Assembly (NCBI RefSeq): GCF_036588685.1
Contig: NC_086376.1
Location: 93,041,630 to 93,105,629 of the forward strand
Direction of reading: 5' to 3'
DNA from: Mytilus trossulus
Lineage: Eukaryota
Length of the DNA stretch: 64,000 bases
Shown here: positions 1 through 60,181 of the stretch, piece by piece
Layout of the letters: every line of letters starts with the position of its first letter
Numbering within the stretch: position 1 is the first letter of the stretch
Notes under the pieces: generated by a model
Told to the model about the DNA's origin: nothing
The model's input: the letters and a program-made list of their open reading frames with translations, nothing else
Database searches by the model: none
Translations under genes and position numbers: made by a program

Positions 1-1695
1 CAAGTGAGAAATAAACATAGACAGAGAGATACAAATTAATACACTAACCTTTCGCTTGAAACAGTTTTTCTATCTTTCATTACAGATACTGAGATAGTAT
101 AAAAGAATCTCACCTGCCGACTGTTTTCTTGACCGTGTCATGATGAAATTGTGAAAGTGTGTAAGGGATGTTTTGCAACTTCGATTAAAAGAACAAATTG
201 ATTATAAAAACCGCAAATACAATGTAACATTTGTTTTTACTGTAACTGCTTAAAACCAATTATATTTGTCATCAAACGCAGCTCCGCCTTTGACACCTTT
301 CTTTGAAATTATTTATAGAACTTTAATAAAGCGTAGACAGTCAGTTGATTAGTAATCACGTTGATTCTGTTAAACTGACTGTTTTATATACTCATGATAC
401 TTTGAATGTTAAAAAGATTGAATGGTCTTTTCTGATTCTTAAATATGTTGAAGTCAACCCATGCTTTGCAAATTTTAGGGGGGCGCCCGCCCGCCACGCC
501 CCCGCATAAATCCGCCCCTGATGGCTACCAAAATGTCGGTCTTCAGTTTTCTAATATCTCTTTTCATACCTGTAGGCTTAAAAAGGGAGTTCAATTTTTT
601 TTAAAAGATCAAAAGAACAAATTTCAGTGAAATTATTAGCCAAATTAGCCCTTAATGTGCTGAATTTGAGAACATTATGTAGTACCACCATGTCAGTGCA
701 ATAATATAATGCTTCCAGGAATATAAGTATTCAGATAAACTACTGCCTTCTGACATTTATAACTTTTCAATACACATTAGGAGATATACACTTCAGTAAA
801 TAGTACTCCAGATCTCTGGGGTTACACTTCAGTAAATAGTACTCCAGATCTCTGAGGTTTAGAGACCAATATATTTTTAACACTAAACAGAAAGGAGATA
901 ACACTTCAGTAAATAGTACTCCAGATCTCTGGGGTTAAGAGACCAATACATTCTAAACACTAAACAGAAAGAAAATATTCAAAATTCAAGAGCAGAAGGC
1001 TATATATCTTATGTGTTATCATCTGTAAAGGCAGCTTCAAAGTTGAGATGAAAGTAGAAGGTGTTTTTTTACCAAGGATAATTTGTGCATGTTGAGAGTT
1101 ATGTAACATCTAATGTAAGGGTAATGTTAGAAATCTAAAGAATCCAGTAGTTATGTAAAAGATATTAGTGAATAGTATTTTCTACATATGTTCTCAATGA
1201 AATCAATTGACATGGTAGAATCCCTAAAAATTTTCAAGCTATCTGAATTTCACTAGACAAAATTAAGTTAACATTCCTGTAAAGTATATACCAGTGGCAG
1301 ATCCAGAGTGTTGTAGAGGGCGACTAGGAATACAACTCTTTGATAGCTAAAAAATTGTTTCTCACTATTTCATAAATTTTTATGCATTACATAGTCCAAC
1401 AATGTACTACAGGTGGGTAATTAATTATAAATTACCTTTCCCTTTCAAAACTCCTCTATGGGGATCTCATTAGGGTGTCTGATCCCATTTCCCACTTATT
1501 GTTTTGCCAGAATCCTGTATTCTGGTTATGGTTGCATAAAGTAATTTCCAGTGTCCTGTCGACTTCATTTCCTGTTTTCAAGCTTAATTATTTGACTTTC
1601 ATGTATCACGCTTAAAAAATCAGCCAACCCCATGTCACACTTAGACCCCAATGAGCCCACCTCTATCAACCCCTGCATTATGCCTGCATACATAC

Positions 1696-37000: not shown

Positions 37001-40000
37001 CCCTGTAGTGTTAGGTACCACCTAAACATATGAATATTATACCTTGATGGCATACATAACTTCTAACTGTCTCTCAATCTTTCTTTTGTCCTTATTTTTT
37101 TCTTCTTCTGTCCCTCTAAAATTGTTTTGATATATGAATTACATTTATGAGGTATGTAATAATGCATAATTGTGAATGATAAATGCTTGTTGTTGGATTC
37201 TCTGATTGAGAGGGCCCCAGATCCTAAGCCATATGGACCACCTTGCTGTTAAAACTTATGAGCAGGTTTTACTAGGAGAGGTTTATATGTTAATTTTTTT
37301 TAAAGTCAAAAATAATAACTTACAATGTATGTATAATTTTCAGTCATGACAGTGTACATTGCTATTTGACTAGGCATCAAAATTTTACTTGACTTAACAG
37401 GAAACATCACTCTTGTAATACCTCCCAATATCATTGGCATACCTGTCAACTCACCCGTTTTTTGCGGGTGACACCCGTTATTTTCACCTCTCACCCGGGA
37501 GTTTTTCTTTACCTGGCGGGTCCCGGGAATTTCTAACATTACCCGTTTCACCCGGATTTCTGACCGGAATTGTTTCCGGTATTTAGAAGTAATACGACCT
37601 TCGGTTTTATCGGTCTTTTTCATTGTAACCAAAAGTCAAAATGTAGGACTTGTTTACCTTAACTGGAATCCGCTTGTATTACGCTTCACTTAAACAAAGT
37701 GTAGTAGTCAGTCGAGAACCAGCTTATGTTTACCTGAGCTACGTAACGATATTTTCAACAAGCTACAAGATGAGTTCAGTGACTATCAGTTGACCCCATT
37801 AGATGAACTTCCACTTTGCACTTCCCCTGAAACTGACATTGGTACATTTTGGGGAGAAATATCCAAGTTGCATGACATTTTTCTTAACAAGCCAAGATTT
37901 TTTGTTTTGTCAAAACTTGCTAAAACATTACTGGTTTTGCCAAACAGCAATGCAGACAGTGAGAGGGCATTTTCTTTAGTAAAGAAAATAGCTACAGAGT
38001 TTAGGGCTGATCTTAATAAGGATACACTGTGTGCTCTTCTTTCTTGTAAAATGAATACACATTTGCATTGCTATGAACTGAAACCAAGTGCAGTTCTTTT
38101 AAAGAATGCCAAGTCTGCTACTATGGAATATAACAATAGTCTGAAATAAACTTGTATACATGTTCTAACTGTTTTATATACATATTGACTATATAAATTA
38201 TATGTAAACATATTTTTGTTCTTCAATTGAGCCCACAAAATGTCGTACGCGTTATGACCTGAGATTTTTTTTCTCAATGCAGGTCATGACCTGACTTTTC
38301 ATTTTCAGAGGTTGACAGGTATGCATTGGCTATATATTGTCGATGAAGAATGTCCTATTTATCTTCATGATTCAATTTACTGAAAGGAAATCTCTTATTC
38401 TTTTAGATACCAAAATACAACAGACCTACAATCTTAACTAAAAAACTGGCTGTGTATGTAATCATTTTAAAATTAATTCACAGTGTTCTCTCCAGGGTGT
38501 TTTCGCATCATGGTAATGGGATGACATATTGCTAGTAAGTGATGTAAAATTAGTTCAACATTAAGGCCTAAATTAATATAATGTTTGTTTCTCCATTCTG
38601 ACCCTTCCAAGCCAGGTGTGGGTAGGTAGGTAGGTAGGGAAATAATTTTATTTTTTCCAAAAAGATAGCACAATATATAGGTCGATACACAAGCCTGAAA
38701 ATCAGATGTGAATAAAATAATATTTGACTTAGTTTTGACAATAAAATTTTATATGAGTTGGACCATTTTTGCAGGGTTGGTCGGGATTGAGGAAACAAAA
38801 AATATTTCATTTTAGGCCTAATAGATAGTGTTTATATGAATGTGATGCTATACATTTTTGTATTTTCTAGAACCATAATGGAATTTCATAATTTTCTATC
38901 TACCAGGATGATATAAGAAATTTCTGAGGAGAACACTAAATTCAAGAACCTGATAAATTCTTGGTGTAGCAGCTTGTACAAAACTACTTAATTCTTTTTA
39001 ATATTTTTAATTCATGTAATTATTGCTTTGTTTTTCGCATGGCAAATGTTTTTGTTTACTTTAATATTTAAGTTTTTCTGCTATTTTTTTACTGATTTGA
39101 GCTACTTAATTAATCTCTATAATTTTTTGACCCATTAAATGCATGCTTCATAATGTGTGCTATATTTTGATTTCTGTTTTAATTTTATGTGAGTATGACT
39201 TGATATGTATGTTTTAATCGTATGTGAGTATGACTTGATACGTATGTTTTAATCGTATGTGAGTATGACTTGATACATATGTTTTAATCCTATGTGAGTA
39301 TGACTTGATACATATGTTTTAATCGTATGTGAGTATGACTTGATATGTATGTTTTAATCGTATGTGAGTATGACTTGTTAGGTATGTTTTGATTTCTGTT
39401 TTAATTGTATGTGAGTACGACTTGATACATATGTTTTGATTTCTGTTTTAATCGTATGTGAGTATGACTTGATACGTATGTTTTGATTTCTGTTTTAATC
39501 GTATGTGAGTATGACTTGATCAATACGTTTGTTTTGATTGCTGTGCTTTTTTTTTGTCTGTTGTAAAAGCTCTTCTGAGTTTATGTTTGTAATTGTGTTA
39601 CATTTACAGACATTAAGGTGGTACCTAACACTACAGGGAGATAACTCTGTAAAGTCAGATAAACGTTTTAATTACGGTACGTTGTGTTGTAAAGTGAATA
39701 TTAAACTTCTCAATGATCAAAGTTGGTGTTTGTCAAATTGCTATATAACCAGTGTATTTTTTTTCTGACAAAACGGTTGGTTCAAAATTTTTGAAATTTT
39801 TACATTAAGGGGATAGACCTTGGTTCAGGGAGATAACTTTTTAAATCAGTTATGAGTTTTTAAAAGTCAAGTATCATCAATGTATTTTAAGCATTTAATT
39901 GAAACAGATTGGAAATAATCTATGTAACCTAGAAGGTTAGAATATATTTATGAAAATGGGTAACACAAACATACTGATGATTTTAAGAGTTACTTCCCCT

Positions 40001-43000
40001 AACCTAGGTCTACCTCCTTAAGGTGGTACCTAACACTACAGGGAGATAACTCTGTAAAGTCAGATAAACATTTTAATTACGTTGTGTTGTAAATTGAATA
40101 TCAAACTTCTCAATGATCAAAGTTGGTGTTTGTCAAATTGCTATATAACCAGTGTATTTTTTCTGACAAAACGGTTGGTTCAAAATTTTTGAAATTTTTA
40201 TATTTTTGTGAAAGTGTCAAAATATATACTTTGACAAAATTTTATGAAAATTAAACGAGCCAAATTAATTTTAGTTAAAGTGTTGGGTACCACCTTAAAT
40301 AAAGTTTTATGTCATTATGTCTATTGTTAAACATGTTAAATAAATTATCATGATCCTTGTTAACATGGTTAAGCTGCTTTTACAAACCTTATCTTTAAAA
40401 TGAATAACTCATTATTATCATGATTATACATGTAGTACAAATGAAAATTATGTAATAACAGAAGTCCATTACTAGATGAAGTAGTAATTGACTTCTGGAA
40501 ATAATTATTAATATTTCATGGCAATACATGCGTTTGTACTTAATTGTTTTTAAGTTGGTACAAACTGGTTTAAATGTGAAAACTTACTTTTTATTCCTTA
40601 AACTTTTGACTCTCCTAATTATCTTTTGTACTGTCTGACCTTTAGCCCTCTTTACAGCTTGTCTCATCATAATAATCTGTCAAATCAAAAACACAAAATA
40701 AACCATACAATATACTAACCACTATTGTTCCACATCATGCACTTTCAGATGTTTAATCAAATAACAAATGGAGAGAATAAAAGTGTTTCCACAAAAAATA
40801 AAATATATTTGATCACATAAAATAATTGGCAGTGTATTATAAATAACCATAAATGTGAATGCCTCATTGAAAAGTGGCTTTGAAAGCAAATGGGACCCCC
40901 ACCCTTTTTATGCATTGCTTTTCATTAAAAAAATTCATAAAAAAATTCTGTCATACTTCATATACTCGTTGTATATTCTTTAGTTATCTTACAAAATTAC
41001 TCTTTTTCTTGCGCCCACCAGAGTCGTTGAGTATTGGTCAAGTTTGACAGATCACTAACGTAGAATGAAGATGTAGATGTAGTCATTATATTAATTAGAA
41101 CACGAAGGTTTAATGTGGTTCTTCTTTTGCATTTAATTTACAATAGTATAATATGCAGCATATTTGAGCATATCGCTTCAAAGATTGAACAGAATCCTGC
41201 TCCACATTCAATCCTTTAATGCAAAGAAATCATATAATTGATGACTTCTTGTTGATTCTAACATTGTATGTTTGTTGTAAAGGACACAGGAAAGAATAGA
41301 TGTAAATTTTAAACATCTATGACATTATATAAAATAGGAATATGAATTGCTTTGATAGATAATCAAGACCTCATATATCCAAAACTTGCTAGAACAATCA
41401 TAATGTTGAATTGGGGCAGTATCATTGTTTGATGTGTTTTCGACTAATAACAATTTTTACTGCTTAAGGGTTTCACTGTTGAGTTTTTATTCAGGTGTTT
41501 ACTCAAATTTAAAAAGCATGTCCTGTAGATTGATTTTTTATGGTATCTAGTTTTTTTGTCAAGGCTTACTACAATTTTTACTGTTTCCGATTACTTTGCG
41601 ATTTTTGTATGTTTGTATGTAAAAAAAAACGGTGTGATATGTTTTCGACAGGAAATGACTATAAAATCCGGAAATTAATATTTTCTTAAGTCATGGTTCT
41701 GGTGATCGCTTAAATCTTAAAAAAAATTAGTTAATACTTTTCAGAACAGAAATTACTAGTAATTAGTTTTAGGTTGGCGTTTCATATGTTGAAATTGTAA
41801 GATTTTGATTAATTTCAGATTGGCACCTGGTTTGTACAAAATACATTATTTTTTCTAAAATAAAATGCAGTTTTCAAAATTTAGGTTTAAATATAAACAG
41901 TTATGACTGTTTTCATCTTCATTTATCAAGGATGTATAAAAAGAATTGTCAATAAAATATTGAATAATTAGATTTTGAACAACCATTTTAAAAAAAAACC
42001 TTGTTAATTTTAACTTGCTGGTTTGTAATTAAAATGACCAAAAAATACATGACAGTCACTTGTTTTAAAGATTCCGTGTCTGACAGGCAAAAACATACAG
42101 TGTATCTGGACTTTATTTAAACCCTACAGAATTTTTTTCCACAACTTTTCTAATGATGCATATTTTTGACAATAAAATAAAAATGCCTAAATAGGTCAGT
42201 TTTATTAAATTTGTTCTAATGTCTTTAAAAAGCGACGTTGAATATGTGTTAAATTTGTCAAGTTGTAGTGGTGGTGTTGTTCTAAATACCGTATACATGT
42301 TACAATTTACATTATGCATTCTAACCCACGATAGCTATTAGCTTCGGGTCGATCCGGCCCCACCTCGATCCGGCCCAAGTCGATCCGTCCCACATCACGG
42401 CCCCACGTCGATACGGCCCCAATAAAAAATATATTTATAAGGAATAAAAAATAAAGATATATATTAATTGTAATTCATAAATGTTTATGATTTTTAATAT
42501 AATGTAAAAGGTGTAGGGTAAAAAAAAAAAAGGCCTTTGAAAAATATGTTCTTTAGATGAGTATAAACCAACTACAAAATGTAGGTTGATTATGTTTTTA
42601 TAACAAGTTTTCAAGGTTATTGGGTATTATTATATTAAAACGTATATAAAATAATATGATAGTGCATTTGTTCTTGATGAGCAAATATTATATATGTACG
42701 CCATTGCCAGTTCCTGTATATGTTATTGTAGTGTTGCAAGTGTGACCCCTTTACAGTAAGTGACAGTGTAAAACTGTTAGTTTATGTATGTGAGTGTCGG
42801 AGAGAAAAAAACAAGTTATATGAGTATCCATTAATGACCATTATTCTTTATTGCAAATAACAAATCAATGACACTGAATGCACATTTCAGTTCACTCTCT
42901 AAAATATAATATCAGCGCTACTAAAATATAACAATAAAATCTTACACACTAACAAACACACTTCACAACTATTCAAAATATTGTCAAATTTAGAAAATAT

Positions 43001-43724
43001 ATTGACTATATTCGATATTACAAAAAAAACCACCAAGTGTTATACTTTTAGAAGCTTATGATGTTACCTGAAAGAAAAACACCAATTAATTATTATTATA
43101 TACAACAAACAAACGATCAAACTATAAAGACCTTGTTGATTACGTAACTTTAATTAATTAGGATTTGATTGAATTAAGTGATTACGAGTGGATTAACCTA
43201 GTTTACAATCATCAGACAATTATTGATTAAACAAACCAATTATAGACTAATGATTTGATTAAAAAAGTCATTATGATGAGTTAAATTTTATAAGTTCCAT
43301 TAGATTGTAAATATTTATTTAGCTATTGTCATCCATCATCAGACACTTTTTGCAAATTCCATTTATACTGTTAATTTTTTTTTCACAAATTCCTCTAAAA
43401 TCAATATAGTTCATTCATATTTTATTATGGGGCCGGATCGACTTGGGCCGGATCGACTTTGGGCCGGATTGACTTGGGGCCGGATCGGTTTGGGGCCGGA
43501 ACGACCGGATACTATTTTTTCCTTGACGCCTAACTGGGCAGTAAGGTGTTTTCAAACCATAAAAAATCAAAAAGCTTTTCAAGATGTCAAAATTATTTGG
43601 ACTATATATATATGAAAGCAGAATAAACATGTCATTATAAACAGTGAACCTTATTATTTAAAGACAGTATGTCTGTACTAGCTGGTTTAGCAACGTCAAG
43701 CTTTCTCTGTTCATGTACTTCCAT
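31018..43724 (-). CDS. SRFBP1: Serum response factor-binding protein 1 (BUD22 family), 7 exons, 681 aa
   Basis: Exons 43724-43650, 40676-40588, 37115-37043, 35686-35615, 34782-33182, 32360-32341 and 31133-31018 total 2046 nt with compatible phases. N-terminal '[16 protein letters not shown]...KKGTEE...[11 protein letters not shown]...ALARL' and C-terminal '[13 protein letters not shown]...[10 protein letters not shown]' match the family. Confidence 0.93.
31654..32124 (-). mobile_element. HINE-like non-autonomous Helentron with two ~170-bp internal repeats
   Basis: AACAAGAATGTGTCC...GATGCCCCAC start, ACGG/ACAG microsatellite, and ATGCCCC...GTGGGGCATAAAAA end. Confidence 0.7.
36367..36614. repeat. 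Palindromic element: ~50-bp inverted arms enclosing 4 x 32-bp tandem repeats
   Basis: TTAAACAGATAT...GAGGGGTATTTGC.AAAAATA.CAGT and its reverse complement flank (CTCTCCCCTTACAGCTCGTGAAATTTAACATT)x4. Confidence 0.8.
36617..37022 (-). mobile_element. Inverted copy of TTAA family A with family B inserted
   Basis: Reverse-complement similarity to 40022-40294 (...CCCTGTAGTGTTAGGTACCACC) and to 39809-40017 (TTAAGGTGGTAGACCTAGGTT... from ~36739). Confidence 0.75.
37438..38323 (+). mobile_element. Internally deleted hAT element retaining the C-terminal dimerization domain; 6-bp TSD
   Basis: TIR CATACCTGTCAAC/GTTGACAGGTATG with CATTGG on both flanks. ORF 37790-38149 'FW...[24 protein letters not shown]' is the hAT dimerization motif. 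Subterminal CACCCG repeats are present. Confidence 0.9.
39186..39521. repeat. 35/46-bp minisatellite
   Basis: TATGTGAGTATGACTTGATACATATGTTTT(GATTTCTGTTTT)AATCG repeated ~9 times. Confidence 0.9.
39617..40294 (+). mobile_element. Stack of three TTAA-flanked non-autonomous elements (Kolobok-like; families A-partial, B, A)
   Basis: TTAA|GGTGGTACCTAACAC... starts at 39617 and again at 40022-40294 (ending GGTACCACC|TTAA). Family B lies at 39809-40017 (GGGGATAGACC...GGTCTACCTCC) and shares the TTAA sites. Confidence 0.8.
42341..43512. mobile_element. Foldback-like DNA element with tandemly repetitive TIRs (possibly Mutator-like), TA-flanked
   Basis: About 5 copies of a ~17-bp GTCGATCCGGCCC(C) unit at 42348-42420, mirrored at 43429-43507. 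The interior is AT-rich and non-coding. Confidence 0.75.
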
Positions 43725-44041: not shown

Positions 44042-44108
44042 ATGGCGGATGTTTTGGATCTTCAAGAAGGGACCGGCGAAGAGTTCGAAGTTGACGAAGA
44101 AGGAGACC
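44042..44108 (+). CDS. RBM8A: RNA-binding protein 8A (Y14, exon junction complex), exon 1 only
   Basis: MADVLDLQEGTGEEFEVDEEGD followed by a phase-1 GTAAGA donor; matches the conserved Y14 N-terminus (MADVLDLHE.....F..DE.GD). No intact downstream exon was found in the window. Confidence 0.85.
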
Positions 44109-44243
44109 GTAAGATACTTGTATTTAAAGTAGCAGAGTCTCACAACGAACAGCAAGCTATTAAGGGCAACAAAAGCACTAGTGGAAAGCAATTCATACAG
44201 GAAAACCAATGGTCTAATCTATAAATAAAAACAAAAACACATA

Positions 44244-44827
44244 TAGTCGCCGTCACGTAAAATTGGCACGATGATTTTTGTCAAAATTTTCTTAAATATC
44301 AATCGCATTTACTCGAGATCATGTTTTTCAATTTGCGGAATAAAAATCCAATCCAAATATATACTACTGCCCTACCTTTTATTGTGTTTTCACTGTATAA
44401 TCCTGACCTTCACATTTTTCAAGATTGTTTTCATTGTAAAACCGCCATCTTGGTTTCTATGAGGATCCCTTACTACATAACATTCGTTACTCTCTGGTAA
44501 TATCATTGTCATTGATGATACGATTTCCCGCGCTTTTTACATAAAGATGACGCACAGCTCCGAGAGACACAAGAACATTGAGAGCACGTGGACTCCACGG
44601 CAACACTTCCGGTAATAACAATGTCGGATTCCACCATACAAAATAATCCTGGATTTTGTGAAGGTCAGGATTATACAGTGCAAACATAATAAAAGGTAGG
44701 ACAGTAGTATATATTTGGATTGGATTTTTATTCCGCTATTTGAAAAACATGATCTCGAGTAAACGCGGTCGATATTTAAGAAAATTTTGACAAAAATCAT
44801 GGTGCCAATTTTACGTGACGGCGACTA
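44244..44827 (-). mobile_element. MITE (584 bp, TA TSD, ~170-bp TIRs) related to the adjacent Sailor-type transposon
   Basis: TA|TAGTCGCCGTCACGTAAAATTGGCAC ... GTGCCAATTTTACGTGACGGCGACTA|TA, with long imperfect TIRs. Shares subterminal motifs with 45034-55788 in the opposite orientation. Confidence 0.9.
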
Positions 44828-45414
44828 TAATGCAACATACATGTACAATTCCAATTCACCCCTCAGGTTAATATCAAATTGGGTTTTTCACCACCAAGCT
44901 CCTTAATGTATTGGGTTTTTTCATCGACACAATATTGAATATTTAGGCAAAATCAACCCCAATTTTGTTCAATCTAAAATTAATATGTTTCTGTCTTCGT
45001 TTAGCTCTTTTATTTGGTTTAGGGTTATGGTTACAGTCGATTTCAGGTTATTCTGGTTGGGCTAAAACGCTTCGTACGTAAAACTGACTTACCGCGTCTA
45101 TTCAAAATTATGTTTTCCTAACGCATAATTTTTGGTATTGCCTTAATCCAATAATTATTTCCCCCTTGTTCCTCACATATCTGGTACCGTTTGCAAAATT
45201 GCTTCCGATAGGTTATCTCACCATTGGAAGTCGGCCATTGTTTTTACCGGAAGTGTTGCCTGGGAGTACGATGACGTATGTAAATATTATCTTTTCGAAA
45301 TTCTCGGGAGTCGTCTCGGTTAAGACGATAAAAGAAAGACGTTTATAAATAGCAGACGAACTTCTGTTTACCATATCGACTTATATTGAAGACTTGAAGA
45401 TTTGTTTATATACA

Positions 45415-48400
45415 ATGGGAAGGAAGAAAGTCAGAACGACAATCAAGAGTGTTGAGGTATAACAACTTGTGTATAAACCAAGAATGATGTTTTCTGAAAC
45501 TCAGGTGAATCACTGACAGTGCCTTTGGGGAATATCATCTGTTTTCAGTTGTCAACTTGTGTTATTGAAAACTTTATAAAGTTGTCCCTTTTAATGTATC
45601 AAAGTAAGAAATACTGTAGTGATTACCCATACAATTCAGAAAACACCATTCACAGCTTTTCCCTTCATATATAAAACTTTTCTTCCCTGTCTACTGCAGT
45701 TTTGAACATGCAAGAAAAAAAACATGACTCTTTGCAAATGATTCAAGACATTAAAGAATACAGAATAATGGGAAAAATATAGAAATAATATAGAAAAAAA
45801 TACCCAACACAGGGGCAGATCCAGCCTTTCAAAGGGAAATTCCAACCTAGGAGAAAGGGGTTGACGCTCTACCCATTTCTCCTGGGTTCTAAGGGGTGGG
45901 ATTTCCAAATGTATGACCCCATTCTGACCCCCAATGCCACCACTAACGAATACAACAAAATAAAGAATAGAGAATTCTATCTATTCATTGGCTGATCCAG
46001 GGTTGAGGAGGGTTGGTTTCCCTTTTTTGGGGGCAATCAATGCATTCATATGGGGACCTATAGTCAAGACATACATCCCTTTTTGGGGGGCAATCAATGC
46101 ATTCATATGGGGACCTATAGTCAAGACATACATCCCTTTTTTGGGGGCAATCAATGCATTCGTATGGGGACCTATAGTCAAGACATACATCCCTTTTTTA
46201 AATGGCTGTTCTGCCCCTGATATTTTTACACCAAGAAATGAAAATTGGACACAACATTCATCAATCATACTTTATCACTAGACTAGTATATATTTGTTAA
46301 GGGGCCAGCTGAAGGACGCCTCCAGGTGTGGGAATTTCTCAGTACATTGTATACCTGTAGGTGACCTTCTGCTGTTGTTTTTCTAGTATGGTCAGGTTGT
46401 TGTCTCTTTGATACATTCTCCATTTCCATTCTCAATTTTATTTCACAATCAATTGCATAAAGTTCTAATCACTGATAGATCCTACATCTTATCTAAATTA
46501 TTGAAATCATCATTTTGCTTTTGCACTTTGAGTAAATTAGATGCACCAATTATCACCTCTACAACATACTTCAATAGAGATAACAGGAAGTTTGAAAAAT
46601 ACCAAATAAACTAAACCAACAACACTGCATGGTCCATTTTTCCTGAGAAATAAATAGTGCATGATTTGGCCTAAAATTTTATACAAGACTGCCAGATACC
46701 TGTAAGTGCAATAATATGGGTAAAAGAAATTGAGAATATTGTTCGCACAGAGACATGCCTTTATTTTACAATAAAATAACATATATTAGAACCTATTCAT
46801 TTATGAGTTGGACATAAGTTGCAAAAATTTTCTGCCCAACTTTTCATCCTTGATAGTAAAGTCTTTGACCATTATTTAACTTAGAGCAGAAGTCCATAAC
46901 AAGTACAATATGTGGCACTCTGACACTTTTTATCCTTAGGAAAATTGTTTTATTGCTTGTTCTTCTAGTAATTTTAATTATAATTATAGTTTTTATTAAA
47001 ATGAGCATATTTTGAAAGTTTCATCTATTTTTCCATAAAAAAAAAAGGTATGGGCATTATAAGCTAGGAATAATAATAACATGATGTCCTTTTATAGAAA
47101 ATAAGTCTGGAGACCTACATTAAAAAAAAAACCACAAATCTGAAAATATATAAACAACATTTGAATTTATCTTATATAATACAAGGCATGGACATTTTTA
47201 CCTAGGTTAATAAACTACAAGGAAATTATTAGGAAAAATAGGGGGATATGAATTCCATTAGTATTTATAATGCACAACTCTAATTATAAAACATAGTATT
47301 GAATATTCATTGTGTACATGTAAATATTTTTTTTTCAAAATTAAAGGACATGAATGCTTGAAGAATATAAATGACATTGACAAAAGTTTCTAGGAAAATT
47401 GGCCAAGGGACATCCATTTCAAGAAAATTATAAATCCACAACTCTATTGAATATCAAAACATAACATTAAAATTTCAATTGTGTATATGTACTACATGAT
47501 TTAAATCGTTATTATTTTTTTCCTATACAAAAAAGGGACATGTATGCTTTCACCTAGAAATATTAATGATGGACTTTAATTCATAGAAAAATGAGTGAGG
47601 GAAAAGAAATAACTTACATCAGACTAAAAATACAAGTTAATTTTGTAACAATGGATTTTTAAGGCCAGAAATATGTGGCAACCTAGGTTTCATTTTTAGA
47701 AATAATAACTCACACTCTCATAAAATTCATAAACAGTTACCCAAGGGTGTCTTGACAAAATATTCTATCCATTGAGCACACCCAATTAAATTTTTATACA
47801 CAGAATTCATTCCAGGAATTGTATACTAAGGGAGGTAATCCCTATAAGAAATAGATTTATCTCCCATTAATTTGTCAAATTGTTGGTTACAATATTGACA
47901 TTTTTCAATGCTAAATTTTCTAATGCATGCAACAATTATAAAAAGCATCCCCAGAATAATAACAAACAAATAAATCTATGCTACAAAATTGATTAAAAAC
48001 TGTTATGAATTAATTGAATACTAGAATTATAATGGAATGGAAAATTATGTCGGATTACATGCATTGTCACAACGTCAGCTCTGACGACATCAAGAGGAAA
48101 AACAACATTTATAATATTAAGATAAATACAAAATAAAGAGTATATCCACATCAAATACTAGGTAGTTTAAAATGTTATTAAGCCAGCAATCTGACAACAA
48201 GGATGAACAATTTAGAAATTATGATCTGCTTAAAATAAATTGTTAATAATAATTTAGAAATCAAAAACTGTACACTTACAGTTAAAACATTTTCATATAA
48301 TTTATATTGAAAAACACTTAATTTAGAAAGCTATATATTATAATAAAAGAAATTGTGTAAATTAAAAATTATATTTGCCATTGATTTTTGCAGGTTTCAC

Positions 48401-51277
48401 ACCTCCTTGAAAAATTCTTAAAATTTTTCACCATGGAAAAGAAAATTGGAAAACCATGGTGTTTAAGTGATCCTTGGTCACGCATGGTGAAGGCAACAGG
48501 TAGTGTAAATATTTATGGTTAAGACACTGGCAAATATGAATTCTTGACTTACATTAAAACGGCTTGTCTGAAAATTTTACTTAAAAGTCACTGACTGTTC
48601 TTTATGAGTTATAGTTATAAAACTGGACATCCCCCTATTCTTAATTTATAATTCCCATATCTCAGAACAGTTTAAAGATCTTGAATTTTTAAATTAAAAA
48701 AAAAGAGCCTGTTTCAATTTATAGAGACAATTTTCAAAAGTTTTATGAAAGTAAGGTTTGAAACTATCTCAGGAAACGTCAAAAAACAGAAAAACATTTT
48801 AGTCATTACATTCAATCAAAATTATTTACACATGCATAGCTTCAAAATCAAAAAAGTTCAATAAAACAATATGCATAAACTATTGAAAAATAATGGTCCA
48901 TCTTCTTTACTAAGGAAACCGACAGCTTCACACAAACCAGTACTTTACAAAATAAAAATGTACTAGAAAATGTGTTCTTTAAATACAATTATAAAATCTC
49001 CTGAAAAGATTAATACTCTCAATATCTCGTAATTGGTTGATTATTAAAGTGTTCACATTTAACACAGAACAAATGAATGTTAATATTTCTGAATAATTTT
49101 TCTCTATTTTCAGGTATAAGCCTCAGTACATTAAAGAGGAAGATCGAGGCTTTGGATCCAGTGCAGGATGTTGTAAAGGCAGTCCACAAGTCATCAATAC
49201 AGAAGCCTGGTCCAAAGCCTTGGATCTTGGACGACTTTAACCGGAACGTTGTCAAAAGGACCATCCATGATATGTACCGGAAGAAACAGGTGGTGTCCAT
49301 GCCCCGTCTTCATGAAGTCCTGAAAGAGAAAGACATTACTGCATCATTGTCAACAGTAGTGAGAACAGTGAAGTCACTGGGTTTTCGGTAAATATTTATC
49401 AAAATTAACATTTTTAAGTAGGTAGGGAATTTATTTCCTTTCTGATTGACAAGCAAAATAACATGCTTGTTGAACACAAGAAAATGAAGTTACATTTAGG
49501 GGCCTTTTATAGCTGACTATGAGTATGAGCTTTTCTCATTGTTGAAGGCTGTAAACTGACATTTAGTTGTTAAAGTCAGTGTCATTCTAGTCAGTTGTGG
49601 AGAGTTGTTTCATTGTCAATCAGACCAATTCTTTTTTATATTTACTGCACACACAAAAAAAAACAAGAAATCTTATTTCATTTTAAAATTAATTTATATT
49701 TTTGGGACAACAAAAAGAAATTCATATATGTAAATATGGTAAATATATGGTCTAACAGCCCATACCTGATTCAAAACACAAGACATCTGCACACCATTGA
49801 TTAACATTTTTGTCAAACACTGTTATCATCAACCAAATGTAGAATCTGTAATTAGAAGTATTATAAGAAGTCAGTATGTAGGAAACAGTGTATTTGAAAA
49901 TTACATTTTTTTTGCAGTGAAAATTAGTTATAGAGAAAAAATCATTCCTATTATTTCTTTATTCTGAGGACAATGCAATAAATGCCAATGATTAAACTAG
50001 TATGTCTTTTTTTCAGGTTTTCCAAGAAAGGATCGGGCCGACGTCATGTCGTTGAGAGGGATGATGTTGTCGCTCTTCGTCACCATTATCTGCGTCAGAT
50101 ACGTAAGTACAGGCAGCAAGAGCGTCATATTGTGTATTTAGATGAGACTTGGTTGAATTCCAATCATGTAGTCAAAGGTGATTGGCTGGATGAACCTAGC
50201 ACATCCATGTCAGTCTTTGAGCCACACTGTGAGGGCAGCGGGCGTTCTTTACCATCTGGTAAAGGCACTCGTTTGATAATCCTAGATGCTGGATCTTCTC
50301 AAGAAGGCCTCATCCCTGGTGTTGGCCTAATCTTTGAGTCGAAAACCAGCAGCTCGGATTATCATGATGAAATGAATAGTGAACACTTCACAGAATGGTT
50401 CAGAGACACGCTCATCCCTAGACTAACTCCCCAGTCTGTAGTTGTAATGGACAATGCTCCATATCACAGCCACTTAGATCCTGAGTCGAGGGCACCTTCT
50501 ACAGGTGCTAATAAACCAGGTATCTCGGCATGGTTGGATAAGAACAATGTTGATTATGACCCCAAAATGAAAAAGACTGGGCTGCTTGATTTGGTAAATC
50601 AGCACAAGCCTCAGAAAAAATATGTGATAGACGAACTTGCAAAAGCTCATGGCCATGTGGTTTTACGATTACCCCCTTACCATTGTGAGCTCAATCCCAT
50701 TGAAATGGTTTGGTCTGACTTGAAAGGCTTCGTAGCTAGAAAAAATTCTACCTACAAAATTAAAGATTGTAAGAAGCTTTTTGAGGAGGCCAAGTCCCAT
50801 TTCAGTGCGGAGCGCTGGGCTAAATTTGAGACTCATGTGGTGAGGGAGTATGAAGAAAAGCTCTGGCAGATCGATGGTCTCAGAGACAAGGCTCTTTCTC
50901 CAGTTATTATACACATGACGGACGATGAGACGGATGACAGTCAGGCGACTATTGTATATTGTCAGGAGGGGGGTACCGATGACGAGGAAATTGACATGGA
51001 CATTGTTGACGGTTATGTCTCTGATACCAGCGATCAGGCTGATGTGATTTTGTGTAAAATTTGTCATGACACTGATCCGCCAGGACGTGTTCCCAAGCGA
51101 GACCGGGGAACACACATTGATTGGTTTCAGTGTGACACCTGTGATCAGTGGCTGCATAACAAATGTTGCACAAAACCTGCCCTGGCGCAGATAATGTGTC
51201 CTCGGTGCTATTCTCTTCTTCACCACCGAAAGCTCAGTGAAACACTGGTCTCACCACTGGATGATATGGAGCAATAA
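45415..51277 (+). CDS. Intron-containing DD83E transposase with C-terminal PHD finger, predicted 560 aa
   Basis: Exons 45415-45456, 48394-48499, 49114-49387 and 50017-51277 (1683 nt, phases 0/1/2 compatible). HTH-like 'RMVKATGISLSTLKR' and 'SLSTVVRTVKSLGFRF'. Catalytic YLDETW (D at 50141), VMDNAPYH (D at 50450) and LNPIEMVW (E at 50702), with 83 aa between D2 and E. C4HC3 PHD at 51053-51208. Exons 1-2 are less certain than exons 3-4. Confidence 0.88.
46020..46199. repeat. 3 x 57-bp tandem repeat inside a small GC-ended MITE in transposase intron 1
   Basis: GGGGGCAATCAATGCATTCATATGGGGACCTATAGTCAAGACATACATCCCTTTTT x3. Confidence 0.85.
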
Positions 51278-52053
51278 TGTCTTTCTTTAATGTTGGTCAA
51301 ATGCAGTGCATTTTTCCATCAGTTTCAGGACTTCTGAAGAATGGACAATGTTATATCTGTGATAAAAGCATATCTGTGATAAAGACTATATTGTGATAAA
51401 AGTAAAGCATATCTGTGTTAAATTATATAGTGCTAAACATCTGTGATTTGTTGTGTTTTAATGTGCAATATCATGATTGTAAATATTATCGTCATTCGTG
51501 TAAAGAATTTATCATGTAAAAAATTATCTCGAAATTCTTGGACTGTTGTTGACATTAATTATATATGCATATTATTTATTGTTACACGTTGATTAAGTTT
51601 AATTTGAATTTATCAAATTTTATCAATTTCAAATAGTTAAATGTATTGCAAGTTATTTTATATCAAAATGTTTCAATATAACTTATCAAAATCTCATGTG
51701 TATTTAATTATTTTAAACAGACTTTATATTTGTAATATGTACAAATAAATGGTTGTATGAATCTCAATTTGAAATGGAGATTAGAGACATATGAACACAA
51801 ACTATTTTAGTTTTCACTTCATATGCAGAGAAATTACATTATTAAGCAGTGTAAAATATCTACACTTTATGGATTATTTAGATTAAACAGAGACAAAAAT
51901 TGTTCTCATTCCATATAATTAGTTCACTACTGACAAAGAAGTACAAAATGTAGGAGGGGACGTTTAGGTTGCACTCTGTTTATCTGTTTGTCAATCTTTC
52001 AGTCCAACAAATCAGTTTTCAACATTTTGTATGCCCCATATATGGTGATCTAT

Positions 52054-52719
52054 GGTAGCAATACACAGTTAGGAAAAAAACTTAAAATTGACACTCATAA
52101 TTTTTAAACACCCCCTTTCCCCTCCTGTCTAACAAAGAAGGCTTTATATGTGTGTTATGCATGTATATACTTGTAGAAAGATAATCTTCCATAGATTTGA
52201 TTTCTAATGGTCATAAGGGTGAAATATAATCCCTTTTGGGTGTAACCATGGCAACAATCTGCATTTCTTAGATACAAAATATAGCAAAAAAGGGGGGTGA
52301 ACATGTCACAAAAAGTCTCCAAAATTTGGTCTAAAGGAAAATTTCAATGAATTACAGTGATACCTTTCCTGAATCCATAGGTTTATATCTATCAAGTGGT
52401 CCAAAAAAAATCATATGTCTTCCTGCTCGTTTTTCCATAAAATTGAATTGAAAAGATCGAGCGCAAAATCTTTGTTGATAAACACTACAATAATTTATGG
52501 ACCTATGAACGGTACGGATAGGAAAATACGGACTGTCAATCATTGAAATGGCCTATAAAACATGTTAAAATCAATCTAAATGTTCATATAAACCCACTAA
52601 GAAGGCTATATTATTCTTCAATTACCTAAAAATCAATTTTATTGTACAAAAACTTTCATATTTAAAAAATTCACAGGGGCCATAATGCGAAACTAAACTT
52701 CTGACTGTGTATTGCTACC
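52054..52719. mobile_element. TIR element with 3-bp (TAT) TSD, nested in a HINE-like remnant inside the Sailor element
   Basis: TAT|GGTAGCAATACACAGT ... ACTGTGTATTGCTACC|TAT. Confidence 0.75.
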
Positions 52720-53224
52720 TATGGTCATTATGTTTTTAGTCTGTGCATTTGTTTGTCTGTCTGGCTTTATATTGAAGCTTTGGTCAAGGTAGTTTACAAC
52801 ACTTCTTTCTGCATGTTTGACGTTATTGTTTCAAGAACTTGGTATATATAGTTTTATCACGACAAGTTAAGAAGCATGCTTGAATTTTATTATGGTCTCA
52901 CTCTGACGAGTTGTGGTTCTTGGACTAAGAAAATCCCCTTAAAAAATCATCAGGCTTGAATATTGGCTTCATGTTTCTGTGTTTGTTTATACATTGCACT
53001 AGCTATTAATATATATATAGTACATATAGAAATTTCCATCATGACAAGTCTGAATTTTGGTTCCAATACAACAAGTTTATATCCAGTGGGATATGAGTGG
53101 GGGACTATTAAATGTATGTGTGTTGCCATGAAATATGCACATTATAGATATTATCATGTACATGTAGAAAGATGTGAGTGCCAATGAGACCTCTCTCCAT
53201 CTGAACCTCTGATTGCTTGTTAAT

Positions 53225-53640
53225 AGATATAGGAAGATGTGGTGTGAGTGCCAATGAGACAACTCTCCATCCAAATAACAATTTAAAAAGTAAACCATTA
53301 TAGGTTAAAGTAAGGTCTTCAACACGGAGCCTTGTTTCACACCGAACAACAAACTATAAAGGGCCCCAAAATTACTAGTGTAAAACCATTCAAACAGGAA
53401 AACCAACTGTCTAATCTATATAAACAAAACGAGAAACATGAATATATTACATAAACAAAAGACGACTACTGTACATCAAATTCCTGACTTAGGACAGGTG
53501 CAAACATTAGCAGCAGGATTAAACGTTTTAATGGATCCAAACCTTCTACCTTTTTCTGAAACAATAGCATAAAATCACAACATAGAAAAACACACGATAA
53601 AATATCAATTGGCAGACTTAACTTTTAATCAAAAAAAAAT
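53225..53640 (+). repeat. Abundant interspersed repeat with head AAGATGTGGT(G/A)TGA(G/T)TGCCAATGAGACAACTCTCC
   Basis: The same head recurs at ~1871, 30400, 35006 and 53168, and reverse-complemented at ~32245 and ~49620. Confidence 0.75.
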
Positions 53641-56600
53641 ATGATTACAAAATAAACGAAATACGAATGTTAAATATTATTAAAAAAAATCTGAAGAAGA
53701 AAGTCAGACAAATAAAAACATTCATGAGCTCAAGTTTATACTTGGAAATCAGACTGACTATAACTGTGCTTGTTCCAAAATGGCATGAAAAGTGTTAATG
53801 TATGCACTAACATTATGGTACACTACGTGTGGTCAACTAAAAGATGCTTATTATTTTTTTTTAACTTGGCATAAAAAGGGGTTGACGTCATGAAACTTTG
53901 CTCAGTGCTCAGAGCACAAAAATCATGCTCGAAACATGAAATCCAGCATTTTGATTGGTCGATTCTGGAGTCTTGAGTACAAAAGTTGTGCTTGAATGTT
54001 TTATGACCGCAAGGCCCGAACACAAATTCATTTAAAAGAAAACAAACAATACATGTAATTTAAATTTTCACCGTTTGTACCTACATGTATATATGAGGAC
54101 AATTCTCAGTTGACATGGAAAAAAAATGAATAGGCTAGCATATTTTACCCTTAACGCTAATAGTTAACGAAATCTTTGAATCCACAAAGATGCTTTTTAT
54201 TTTTCAGAAAATGAAAATTTTATAACATTATGATTACAGCATGTACAGCCAGTACCAAAGCACAAGTATTTTTCCGGCGATTTTGCACTGGTAAACAAAA
54301 GTCTAATCCTCATGTCCATTCCTTTCACCATATGAACTAGTTGTTCACAACTTCCAAATAATAATGACATCTCTGATGTTTTTATTTCAATATTCTTGTT
54401 TCTGCATGTTCAAGGTGCTTTTATTTCCAAAAACAAAATAGTCATGTAGACATCATGTGCATTGTAACAAGACATAATTATGTAAATTTTAAATGTTCTT
54501 GGTAGAAAATTGAGGAAAGGTATATTGCTTATAAAACATACATGTAACTGTAGTATTATAAATAAAAGTTGTAATGAATTTTAAATGCTTCAAATTAGCA
54601 TGAGTATAAGCTTCGACGTAGTCTTCAACAATGAGAATAACATTCTTTAATTCATGACAACTTGATAAAATATTTACTTTCCCCAAGTAATCTGATTTAT
54701 CCCCTTAGGCAACAACCATTTGATTTTTTGTTTTTGAGAGGGGGGAGGCCATCATATGGATTTTTTTTTTCAATTTTTGGAAAAAAAATAATTTGTTTTT
54801 GACACTGAAAAAAGAAATATGATTTCTTTTCACTCTCAGCTGCCACTACAGTAATGTTATGATAAATTTATAAGAACTTGTCGCCAATAAAATAGATTGG
54901 CGAAAAAAAAAGTTTGAGCGGGGGGGAAAAAAGCCAAAGCCTCCACCCAAGAAATCAAATGGTTGCTGCCTTATCTAATACAAAATGTTCCATTGAAAAT
55001 GTTGAAGGAAATTGCATAGTAAACAAATGTGTTTGATTGCTGCACACGTGAAGTGAGTGATACGCGACACATAATCATTAACCCAACATCAAGGACAAGG
55101 ATCAGGAACATCGAATGATCAACAGATTAGCGATCATCAAAGGCATGAATAAGGCCACACAAACATGTTATTTACAGAAAAAGGTTGCATATCATTATGA
55201 GAATTATGGATTTTCTTAACTACTGTACACAAACCTTCCATTCATCATGTTCATCGTAGATGTTGAAACCGTGACGGTGAAAACACGTGTATGAAATTGA
55301 TTCCGTTCCATTCATTGTATCATATTAAGAGCATACATTATAATTGCTAATCTTGGCATTGGATATGTTGTCAATAATATCATTCTGTACAATATGTAGC
55401 GTAAAAATACCGGGTACAAGATCATATTTTCATAGAATTAATCCTCAATTCCATGTTTTCTACTGTCTCATCTTGTTTACATCATTAGCGCGCGAAAAAT
55501 AACGAAACATTAGCCGAACGTTTCCGGAAACTCCGGAATTTCCCGAAGATTGATAAACAACAAACGATCCTCATAGAAACAAAGATGGCGACCAATCAAT
55601 GCAAACTTGTCGTAGGGAAAGTCAAGGTCGGAATTTCAACCGTCCAATACACAAGGGCTGCCGTAAAACATTTGGAAATGTCAACACCAAAAATTATGCG
55701 TTAGGAAAACATAATTTTGAATAAACGCGGTAAGTCATTTTTACGTACGAAGCGTTTTAGCCCAACCAGAATAACCTGAAATCGACTGTAGGGTTATTTG
55801 CTAGCTGTTTTATTTGGTTTATTCACTGAGGTTTAATTTGTGTCCCGTTTCAAACCTTTTGCCAGTTTTGTATTTTCTCACAAAAAAAGGATATGTGTAT
55901 TCACAGGCACTCGTTTACCTTTATATAATGAATTCTGAGACCAGTGCCTGATCAGTGGCTGTGTGCATGGTGTGTGTATTCATTAATTAACCTTAAAATG
56001 AATAAAAAAATAGCATATAAACTCTAATTATACTTGAATGATTTTCTTTTATTCAATTTACATAAATCTGGGTTTAGTTGTCTTTTATTAGAACTTTTGG
56101 TTTCTGATGCTTTATCATTTCATAATTGATTTGGCCTTTCACTTTTTCCAACTGAATTTGGGTTTGATGAAACCCCGTGTTTATTAGCAATGTTCTCGTT
56201 CGATGGACGCTTCCTAAAAACACTGGCTGAGTCTTGTTATCATTATAACTTTCCCTCAGTTTTCTATTTTTAGAAAGACAGGAAATTTTCAATTATAAAT
56301 ATTATAAAAATAGTTAACGTGACGACTGTAAACAGATAAGGGCAAATAATATAAACAGTAGCCAATAAAAGGGTTGAGAACTCATGGTTTTGGCATATAA
56401 TTGTGTTTTCCGTTGAATTAATTGGGTTGTTGAACACTTCAATGGACAATTTCATTGGGTTTTCTTTTATTTGCATTGCGTGATCACGCAAATACGCAGC
56501 TTATCTGGAGCTCTGAATTCTATGGCCTTTTTCTTCTGGCCCTCATACTTTTCATGTATTGAATCCATATTTTGAATGTAACGGTTTATTTGTGGTACAT

Positions 56601-58065: not shown

Positions 58066-59008
58066 ATTTATGCGCCTGTCCCAAGTCAGGAACCTCTGTT
58101 CTTTGTTAGTCTTGTATACTTTTTTCAATTTAATCTCATTTATATGTTTTGGAGTTTAGTATGAGGCACATTTTCACTGAACAATTTTAATCCCTGGGTG
58201 TGGTATTTTTCGTTGCGTTGAAGACCCATTGGTGGCCTTCGTATGTTGTCTGCTCTTTGGTAGGGTTGTTTCCTCTTTGATATATTCCCCGTTTTCATTC
58301 TCAATTTTATTACTTATGTTGAGCTCTACCTAATGTCCACATCACGTAAAAGCAGTTAGACTTCTAACAGGAGTTATCGACCTTATATGACGAATTTTAT
58401 CACTTGCATGTTCCAGCCTGTTATATTGAAATATATGGCAAATAGATAAAACTTTCAATTGCAAAAATTACCAGCAAGACAAGATCTATTGATTTTCATA
58501 GTTCTTTATTTCACCCCTGAATTTCCTTCTATATAAAAGTTCTTTCCGTTCCGTTTTCCATTTCCGCTGTTTAGCAACACCCAGTAAAAATAGCAAACAG
58601 AAAGTAGAAAAAAATGTTTTGACTTCAGGATTGCATAACTTTTTATTCTTCGAGGCAAGACCCACTTTTTTCGATTAAAACACAATTTCACATTAGTACA
58701 TGTACATAATATAAACATGAATTTTTTTTTCTATGTAGCATTTTTTAAAGATCAGCTGTTTTGCATGTAAGCCTATGGAGCAGTCAATTACAAGACTGCA
58801 ACCTTCAACATGTTCTGCTTATTTAATTTTACGTGCATCGTGATTTTCAAATGCTAATATTTTGCGTGTTCTGTATTTTTTAAAATAAATTATAAACACT
58901 GGGCAGAATCTGACATCAAGAAAAAAATTGATTGAAATTTGGAACAATGGAAGAAGAATATGACTATATTATATGAAGACCTCAACTGCAGAAAAGCAGG
59001 TCCCCAGA

Positions 59009-59915
59009 GATGTTGGCCAGATTGGACTGGGAGGAGATGTCATGGAGAGGATGCGTCCAGCAGTTGTAAAACTTGATGACAAGATTTTACAAGTGTGTGC
59101 AGGGGGTATGCACACAGTGTGCTTAACCAATAAGGGAGAGATAATTACATTTGGATGCAATGATGAATCAGCCCTTGGCAGAGAAACTTCATAAGAAGGA
59201 TCAGAGATGTACCCAGCTAAATTAAACCTGCCTTACAAAGTTATACAAGTTAGTGGTGGAGACAGTCATACAGCTGTATTAACTGAAGATGGCCATGTGT
59301 ATGCTTGGGGTAACTTTCGTGATGCAAATGGATCAATGGGCTTAACCTCTGGTGGCATAAGTAAAGACTCCCTTGAGATGTGCCCAGGGGAGACTGTTGT
59401 TAATATAGTCTCTGGAGGAGATCATTTAGTATGCTTAACAAACAAAGGGGAAATATTTACAGGAGGCTGTGCAGAATAAGGCCTGTTAGGAAGAGTAGCA
59501 GAGTGCTTTGCTGGTCGAGGCAGTAGGAGAGGAGAAGATTCTATATTAAAAATGGGGCCTGTAAGGTGCAGAAAACACAGTAGTAGAAAGCATGCCACAT
59601 TTTCAGACATCTGGGCAGGACAGTACGTTACTTTTGCCAAAGAAAAAGAATCCGGTGATATTTATTCTTGGGGACTAAATAACTACTTTCTGATAGGCTT
59701 TCATGATATGCAGAACAGATTTATTCCAAAGTGGATTCCATCATTTGCAGCTCTTAATAAACAATGGACTAAGATTCAAGCAGGCCAGCACCATACAATG
59801 TTGTTAGATGAGGATGGAAAAGTGTATACCATAGGAAGACCGGAGTATGGCAGGTTAGGACTTGGTGAGAAAAGTGGAGAAATGAAAGATCCTACACTAG
59901 TAACAAAATTAAGTG
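59009..59915 (+). pseudogene. RCC1: Intronless, doubly truncated RCC1 (regulator of chromosome condensation) pseudogene fragment
   Basis: Three ORFs in one frame joined across TAA stops at 59192-94 and 59477-79: DVGQIGLG...[11 protein letters not shown]...[12 protein letters not shown]...VSGGDSHTAVL...WGNFRDANG...SGGDHLVCL...GCAE*GLLGRV...RGSRRG...WGLNNY...AGQHHT...GRPEYGRLGLG. The N-terminus and last blades are missing. Confidence 0.9.
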
Positions 59916-60181
59916 AAAACATGTATGACCTAGTTTATCGGAAAATATACGCCGGGAAATACGAATGAATTAAGGTTATTATTAAAAGAATATTGCAAAT
60001 AATCGTGGCACAACACTGCTCCTCTTAAAGAAAAAAGAATTCTGTCCCTAGAATTGACATAAAATGAATAAATATTCAAATTTAAACATAAGAAGCAAAC
60101 ATACAATGTATATAAACAGTAAAACAACAATATATATAAATCTCATTCATTTAAAGTTCAATATGATTACAAAGTTCTTTC

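Follow-up and report, generated by a model that had tools for sequence, protein, structure and literature searches.

Host-factor sites inside the ends of Tc1/mariner transposons are known from a few engineered elements. The system closest in working to the role proposed below for a block at the 5' end of a mussel transposon is Sleeping Beauty, which combines long Tc1/mariner ends with a left end that serves as a promoter using host HMGXB4 (PMC10138897; this and all other published work is described here as far as the accessible parts of the papers and supplements go). Sleeping Beauty also carries inner direct repeats, whereas the mussel ends have none and bear instead, at both ends, end-specific blocks with ETS-like and YY1-like cores. 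The mariner YY1/NFAT5 silencer resembles the present case in having YY1 sites near the 3' part of a Tc1/mariner element. However, the mariner silencer consists of several sites in the ORF, while the mussel transposon has one noncoding site about 200 bp from its end, which is kept in a MITE (PMC4777549). Sequences inside the TIRs were found to tune excision in the case of Osmar14 and the Stowaway MITE Ost35; MITE and autonomous element differ in their inner sequences in that pair, and here these sequences are common to both (PMC3660474).

The family that bears most directly on the mussel transposase is Sailor (PMC8533490). All of the mollusc rows seen for Sailor have the DD83E spacing, as here, and the ends read TAYAGT in both. 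By eye, the published Mytilus coruscus fragment reads like the group of P0004 and P0006, which is 67-68% identical to the present transposase, and the Crassostrea gigas entry has similarly placed introns and a tail rich in cysteine. The TIRs of the Haliotis rubra element measure 235/237 bp. Sailor elements measure 1.4-7.0 kb, against 10.75 kb here. The accessible text of the Sailor paper describes no Mytilus ends, PHD or subterminal blocks, and the word PHD has 0 matches in it. In the accessible supplement, four exact block 11-mers likewise had 0 matches, while two 10-mers had 4 matches, none of them near an end. The Haliotis and Crassostrea ends and several insect Sailor ends given there show no such blocks by eye, and the Crassostrea entry seems to be without true ends. 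A second bivalve group, the Tc1-like TLEWI elements (10.1101/656579), has spliceosomal introns in the transposase, as predicted here, but differs in being DD36E and mostly without TIRs, whereas the mussel element is DD83E, its TIRs are intact, and it shows both a TA duplication and empty sites. A search of the accessible literature, supplements included (subscription papers, Repbase and Dfam lie outside this scope), found no account of the blocks.

Structure of the two elements

The window, by which is meant the whole stretch of 64,000 nucleotides of Mytilus trossulus DNA that was analysed (assembly GCF_036588685.1, contig NC_086376.1, positions 93,041,630 to 93,105,629 of the forward strand), contains a Sailor-type Tc1/mariner element of 10,755 bp (45034-55788, plus strand). 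It lies 206 bp to the right of a 584-bp MITE of a sister lineage (44244-44827, minus strand), in the opposite orientation. Both start with YAGTCG and have TA on each side (45032-45033 and 55789-55790 for the large element, 44242-44243 and 44828-44829 for the MITE). The left TIR of the large element is 107 bp long (45034-45140, plus) and is 97% complementary to the right TIR (55682-55788, minus).

The flanks of the large element read TACA and TGTA, which are inverted relative to each other. Contigs from runs X1, X5 and X8 contain empty-site loose ends behind 45031-45033 that continue into the right flank with a single TA, and the target duplication is therefore TA. The site is either polymorphic or inside a repeat of which empty copies exist. 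The target is a TAGGGT-like run in another repeat. A hAT-type duplication of 8 bp, with a 7/8 match beside the large element, was considered and rejected, because the MITE is without one and the empty site shows TA.

The Sailor paper gives the target duplication as TATA, while listing TACA for some molluscs (PMC8533490). The large element, with its TACA/TGTA flanks and one-TA empty site, fails to show the published TATA duplication; the MITE flanks read TATA on both sides, which is compatible with a TA and with a TATA duplication alike. This suggests that TA versus TATA is a matter of boundary convention, with YA belonging to the TIR and the published TATA consisting of TA plus two TIR bases. 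The large element is labelled Sailor-type here because the mismatch is read in this way.

The element has a DDE transposase of the Tc1/mariner fold together with TIRs and a TA duplication, as expected of the IS630-Tc1-mariner group, and its DD83E spacing fits both the Sailor range of DD78-111E and the mollusc DD83E (range from PMC8533490). On sequence comparison, the spacing, the TAYAGT ends and the likeness to the M. coruscus fragment would together place it with Sailor. The element gives full ends, a stop-free gene model and an empty site to a mussel family of Sailor type that is published as a fragment. No second gene is evident on the minus strand near its 3' end, and an Rfam scan gave 0 matches.

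The neighbouring MITE is short and noncoding, with TIRs, TA flanks and probably many copies. Its left arm of 188 bp (44244-44431), which forms the 3'-type end, is 92% complementary to its right arm (44640-44827), the 5'-type end. The 124-bp middle (44468-44591) is replaced in related MITEs, judging from contig joints, and has no significant likeness to the large element (the observed local scores were reached by 441/1000 and 610/1000 shuffles). Summed contig depth in run X1 was 279-9139 over the MITE against 8-40 over the end of the large element, values that are indicative only and not copy numbers; the depth comparison took in 1101-2095 contigs per DNA run. No empty site for the MITE was seen in the contigs of four runs. 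The repeat hosting the MITE insertion (44137-44242) has a second copy, 78% identical, at 53334-53439 within the 3' region of the large element.

The predicted transposase

Four transposase exons on the plus strand were predicted by hand from GT-AG sites. Exon 1 (45415-45456) runs from an ATG at 45415 to a GT donor, and exon 2 (48394-48499) matches the start of the homologue P0001. Exon 3 (49114-49387) encodes a helix-turn-helix region, with 95% identity to P0001 over residues 15-141, and exon 4 (50017-51277) encodes the DDE domain (D183, D286 and E370, hence DD83E), an acidic linker and a PHD-like finger, followed by the stop. Exon 1 is the least certain, because P0001, the nearest annotated homologue, begins in exon 2. 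The predicted product has 560 residues in a frame without stops, with a spacing of 83 between D286 and E370.

Pfam recognizes DDE_3 in the predicted protein (E 7e-17). A Foldseek search with a model of the last exon returned Sleeping Beauty, Mos1 and SETMAR at ranks 1-18 (best E 4e-8), Sleeping Beauty being the top match for the catalytic domain. The closest relatives are in Mytilus edulis and M. coruscus (90-98%), and other Mytilus groups stand at 62-71%; on these comparisons, Mytilus likely carries several subfamilies of the transposase, which share 55-64% in the N-terminal region (P0006, P0008 and P0015). Run X8, a single study whose status as RNA is a guess, covers 45095-45440 with zero depth past 45477 and gives no evidence of a transcript start or of splicing; the same run also covers flanking repeats and the TIR.

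Position and conservation of the shared blocks

An earlier note on this DNA had quoted four stretches as subterminal motifs common to the two elements. All four were found at the coordinates it gave, and blastn recovers both blocks there. The 5' block of the large element (45225-45267, plus) has GCCAT at 45234 and an ETS-like core at 45247-45254. Its counterpart in the MITE (44592-44633, minus) has a G(A)CAT core followed by the ETS-like CCGGAAGT, and is identical at 37/43 positions (blastn of 44633-44592 against 45225-45267: 43 columns, 86%, E 1e-7). The 3' block of the large element (55566-55590, plus) consists of a 15-bp tail and an outward-pointing YY1-like AAGATGGCG, and that of the MITE (44443-44467, minus) of a YY1-like core with the 15-bp conserved tail. 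The identity of 24/25 reported for this pair was reproduced (blastn of 44443-44467 against 55590-55566: 96%, E 2e-5). When the MITE is compared with the window by blastn, these two blocks are the only matches below E 0.01 beyond self and arm matches. The reported distances from the ends (191, 194, 198 and 199) are correct as offsets, and the MITE does contain both blocks despite having no transposase-related ORF. Each block pattern has exactly 2 sites in the window at up to 3 mismatches, and 0/100 shuffles reach 2; the patterns were derived from the two copies, and the count shows only the absence of a third copy in the window.

A third shared block, at +58 to +85, is present in both arms of both elements (44744-44769, minus, in the MITE) with 75-79% identity and E values of 0.02-0.03. 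In a global alignment of the 5' ends, identity is 46% over positions 1-57, 79% over 58-85, 50% over 86-191, 86% over 192-234 and 48% over 235-300; for the 3' ends, the segments in the same order give 48%, 75%, 52%, 96% (199-223) and 45%. The level for shuffled sequences is 49 +/- 2%, and the segments outside the three blocks lie at 45-52%; the block borders were picked from the alignment itself, which biases the identities of the blocks upward. The local score of each pair of matched ends was reached by 0/1000 shuffles. For the crossed pairs, the score of the 5' end of the element with the 3' end of the MITE was reached by 249/1000, while that of the other was reached by 0/1000, a result attributed to the symmetric block at +58 to +85.

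The opening letters of all four blocks, at +200 to +203 and immediately inward of the MITE arms, are G(C/A)CAT; only the tail after them differs, being ETS-like at the 5' end and a different 15-bp sequence at the 3' end. Over 86-197, the MITE arm resembles the 3' end of the large element (0/500 shuffles) and not its 5' end (397/500); the arms have thus been homogenised within one lineage, a process that stops at the end-specific tails. The earlier note had described the ends as asymmetric modules of about 240 bp. The end-specific inner blocks are indeed found across lineages, but the asymmetry is not complete, given the G(C/A)CAT shared by 4/4 ends. It had also held that the TIRs are alike only in blocks, which is borne out for YAGTCG and for the +58 to +85 block (75-79%); the further motif that it listed, TCA.GT.A...TGG, finds no support, as the first 57 bp apart from YAGTCG are alike only at the level of chance (151/500 shuffles).

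Several other candidate features near the ends were set aside. The E2F-like word that both 3' ends carry, at +281/+291, is no more than chance would give (441/1000 shuffles). The MITE has neither the CCAAT box (55590-55598) nor the TGACGT word of the large element, and both words are frequent across the window (10 and 19 matches). Nor does the MITE preserve the short ORF that begins at the YY1-like ATG.

Further lineages in public sequencing runs

Contigs of four public runs (4 of 24 listed) were compared over 44100-45600, in rows that are not independent of one another. Among the joints listed (15 of 67), three have their end at precisely 44592, where the 5' block has its inner border, and start at 44467, 44472 and 44517; a fourth joins 44514 to 44600. 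The loose ends inside the MITE, among the 24 of 779 rows listed, fall at 44467 (run X5, 4 contigs), at 44592 (run X2, 6 contigs), twice at 44428 and at 44674. The letters behind the 44467 loose ends differ from the large element's own 3' flank, and therefore the block is preserved up to that very base in another lineage. A contig of run X8 that joins 44467 to 44592 has changes at 44440-44441, 44624 and 44638-44639, which recur in the DNA runs. The one at 44624 turns the core of the MITE-type 5' block back into GCCAT. The contigs show that there are further MITE relatives with both blocks and the same conservation borders.

Other contigs are arranged differently. One from run X5 joins 44422 to 44657 with neither block recognizable, in another a MITE-type arm is joined to a 5' block of the element type (44424 to 45234), and other joints cut elsewhere. 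Summed depth is lower over the 5' block than over the arms, depth here not being copy number. The variant rows give no significant protection of the blocks, with 1/23 listed positions inside them and about 3 expected by hand count (1/16 listed in the MITE and 0/7 listed in the element over 45034-45300; 199 further rows lie outside the count). Beyond these runs, pattern scans for relatives gave 0 in viral contigs and 0 in GTDB, and protein scans gave 68 pattern matches in GTDB, none confirmed, and 1, unconfirmed, in viral contigs. Four metagenome loci that matched by pattern were rejected as chance (4/4), being without TIRs or blocks.

Candidate factor cores

The word CCGGAAGT, at 45247 (plus) and 44612 (minus), matches the ETS core consensus, and AAGATGGCG, at 55582 (plus) and 44451 (minus), matches that of YY1, both being judged by consensus and not by matrices. 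Each core has five copies in the window, of which these elements account for two. ETS and YY1 sites are shorter than the conserved blocks with their tails, and the 15 conserved bases beside the YY1-like core are not accounted for by YY1. CpG observed/expected is 1.2-1.4 at both ends, against 0.41 for the window and 0-0.3 for most intron bins; CpG retention is seen in other repeats of the window too. An unrelated inverted-repeat element at 21425-21924 (65-nt arms, 78%) has the ETS-like CCGGAAGT core in each arm.

The same cores are found at the starts of other bivalve DNA transposons. In the accessible part of a curated supplement (PMC10294476), CCGGAAGT has 17 matches and ACTTCCGG, AGATGGCG and CGCCATCT have 15 each, against 1 and 1 for two letter-permuted control words; the count covers the first ~400 characters of each consensus entry and includes repeats within one entry. 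Matches among those listed come from TcMar, Academ, ISL2EU and Kolobok entries. Almost all of the YY1-like matches listed come from Academ-type entries that start with TAG; the matches recur within these entries and could be sites for a transposase. In one TAG-starting entry, two copies of CTCATAGAAA, which forms the tail of the 3' block, lie near YY1-like cores. Over the same ~400 characters per entry, neither the termini nor the 3' block has a match in the library, and the 5' 11-mer matches one unrelated Kolobok entry.

A frequency about 15 times that of the two controls at the starts of unrelated transposons favours host-factor sites. It suggests that the cores may be a common currency at bivalve transposon ends, which would make them more likely to be host sites and, at the same time, less special to this family. 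The proposal of the earlier note that the blocks may be host-factor sites survives in part. It is still the best reading, in view of the diverged termini, the lack of an inner terminus copy and the cores at the starts of unrelated transposons. The cores are generic, though, and not specific to the family, and YY1 does not cover the 15 adjoining bases.

Possible functions of the blocks

The homology of the blocks, their position, their end-specificity, their conservation above neighbouring sequence, their presence in extra lineages and the stop-free transposase frame are established. The explanation that we prefer, and to which we give an about even chance, is that the blocks are candidate host ETS- and YY1-type sites selected in gene-carrying parents, that the 5' block is the transposase promoter, and that the MITE is heir to both. 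The outer 30 bp would be transposase sites that co-evolve with the enzyme of each subfamily; the termini are 46-48% alike, in line with the 55-64% likeness of the N-terminal regions of the Mytilus subfamilies. The inner blocks would be held constant because the protein that binds them belongs to the host and evolves slowly. That the termini have diverged to chance while the blocks remain at 86-96% does point to a partner that evolves more slowly than the transposase.

On the preferred explanation, the ETS-like core, 168 bp upstream of the predicted ATG (GCCAT is 181 bp upstream), would drive a TATA-poor, CpG-retaining promoter; the only TATA-like word is at 45342. The strong YY1-like site at the 3' end would likely keep that end open, or act as a partner of the weak GCCAT at the 5' end, and the MITE likely obtained both blocks through internal deletion of a gene-carrying parent. 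The explanation is at its weakest on what the 3' block does, and the outward orientation of this block is left unexplained by a promoter role. Moreover, Tc1/mariner promoters have been described as AT-rich and blurry, with weak motifs, unlike the 5' block (PMC6446368). The read variants, with no significant protection of the blocks, also count against the preferred explanation.

The main alternative, which we regard as rather unlikely, is that the blocks are needed in cis for transposition. Host factors would either make the ends into open mini-promoters marked by H3K4me3 or bridge them, the PHD finger of the transposase would reach them, and MITEs would be selected to keep both blocks. Related MITEs do keep both while the middle changes at the inner borders, and the GCCAT-type core stands at the same place in all four ends. 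In addition, the inner sequences of the Stowaway MITE Ost35 boost excision (PMC3660474). However, the same borders fit selection within MITEs and inheritance from several parents alike, one contig (44422 to 44657) has neither block, and the 5' block has less summed depth than the arms, with the reservation given above on copy number. End-specific blocks that are position-fixed across natural subfamilies and in MITEs provide exact targets of 25 and 43 bp for questions about the needs of a MITE beyond its TIRs.

The need in cis also gains from the C-terminal PHD-like finger (51047-51208, plus). The best solved relatives of residues 485-538 are KDM5B and KDM5A PHD3 (E 2e-4 and 3e-3), among 29 matches to E 10 that are mostly PHD fingers. 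In an alignment to 2kgg and 2ma5, the C4HC3 pattern is present and W510 and W519 are matched to both cage tryptophans of KDM5A PHD3, which binds H3K4me3 through a two-tryptophan cage (PMC7613515). Both tryptophans are kept in 14/17 homologues, with mussel, oyster, Solemya and limpet among the keepers; the 17 were picked for long coverage from 120 listed matches, in which most insect and unnamed sequences span ~70% of the query. Pfam matches PHD in 15/18 members at E up to 1, with a best value of 2e-4. On the other side, the finger of the query transposase itself is under the Pfam cut-off (E 0.38) and is modelled at low confidence in the full-length model (pLDDT 50-66), a fold search with the transposase model did not find PHD, and PHD-like fingers on transposases can bind DNA, or histones irrespective of methylation (PMC8086355).

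In its strongest form, the need in cis would describe a self-marking transposon, in which the fixed ETS and YY1 sites make the ends H3K4me3 mini-promoters and a KDM5A-like finger reads the mark and so licenses transposition, with MITEs obliged to keep the blocks. We consider this quite improbable. If it were true, the cores shared across bivalve superfamilies would amount to a common end grammar for host chromatin factors.

The IR/DR layout has inner transposase sites ~200 bp inside each end. The distance of the blocks from each end suits this layout, and it might be supposed that they are inner transposase sites, either IR/DR-like or bound by the finger in the manner of the piggyBac cysteine-rich domain, with an incidental likeness to ETS and YY1 sites. 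The GCCAT core common to all four ends and the length of the blocks, which exceeds that of host-factor sites, are consistent with such a role, and the PHD-like domain of piggyBac binds a repeated motif at the element ends (PMC8086355). Even so, a role as inner transposase sites is distinctly unlikely. An inner copy of the terminal 30 bp is absent from 4/4 ends (the best 14-mer match was 9-10/14, and 47-60/60 shuffles did as well or better), which rules out the IR/DR layout as an inner direct repeat of the terminal transposase site. Furthermore, the finger is 47-59% identical between Mytilus subfamilies as against 86-96% for the blocks, the tails differ between the two ends, and the same cores are found in unrelated superfamilies.

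The YY1-like site could instead be a self-limiting silencer, at which YY1/Pho recruits Polycomb, balanced by the ETS-like site as an activator. The mariner silencer near the 3' end binds YY1 and is tied to PRC2 (PMC4777549), and there is a strong YY1-like site at the 3' end here. We think a silencer very unlikely, however, because the mariner silencer is found within the final 300 bp of the ORF with YY1 sites that are non-orthologous in position (PMC4777549), whereas the mussel element has a single block, 4.3 kb beyond the stop and fixed relative to the terminus. Recent sequence exchange without selection, by gene conversion or template switching, is extremely unlikely: mosaic ends do exist (the MITE arm that resembles the element's 3' end over 86-197, and the contig joining 44424 to 45234), but exchange demands two short events, one per end, at equal offset and each on a CpG-bearing factor-like core, and the same borders recur in further lineages.

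Other features of the window

Both elements start less than 1 kb downstream of a stretch (44042-44108) in which 22 codons after a AAAATGGCG start, followed by a GT donor, match the start of RBM8A/Y14 (E 0.009). A scan with peptide motifs found no later RBM8A/Y14 exon in the window, and for this reason the stretch is read either as a gene fragment or as exon 1 of a gene whose first intron is very long. To its left, at 42339-43514, a unit of 15-16 bp, GGGCCGGATCGAC, forms inverted arrays spaced by about 1 kb, which probably represent a further non-autonomous element. To the right of the large element, a lone end at 56311-56330 reads CGACTGTA, with the first 17 bases like the MITE terminus and no partner or inner block seen. 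An intronless RCC1-like sequence with stops (58950-59920) is probably a processed pseudogene, and a fragment of a hAT transposase dimerisation domain lies at 37694-38149.
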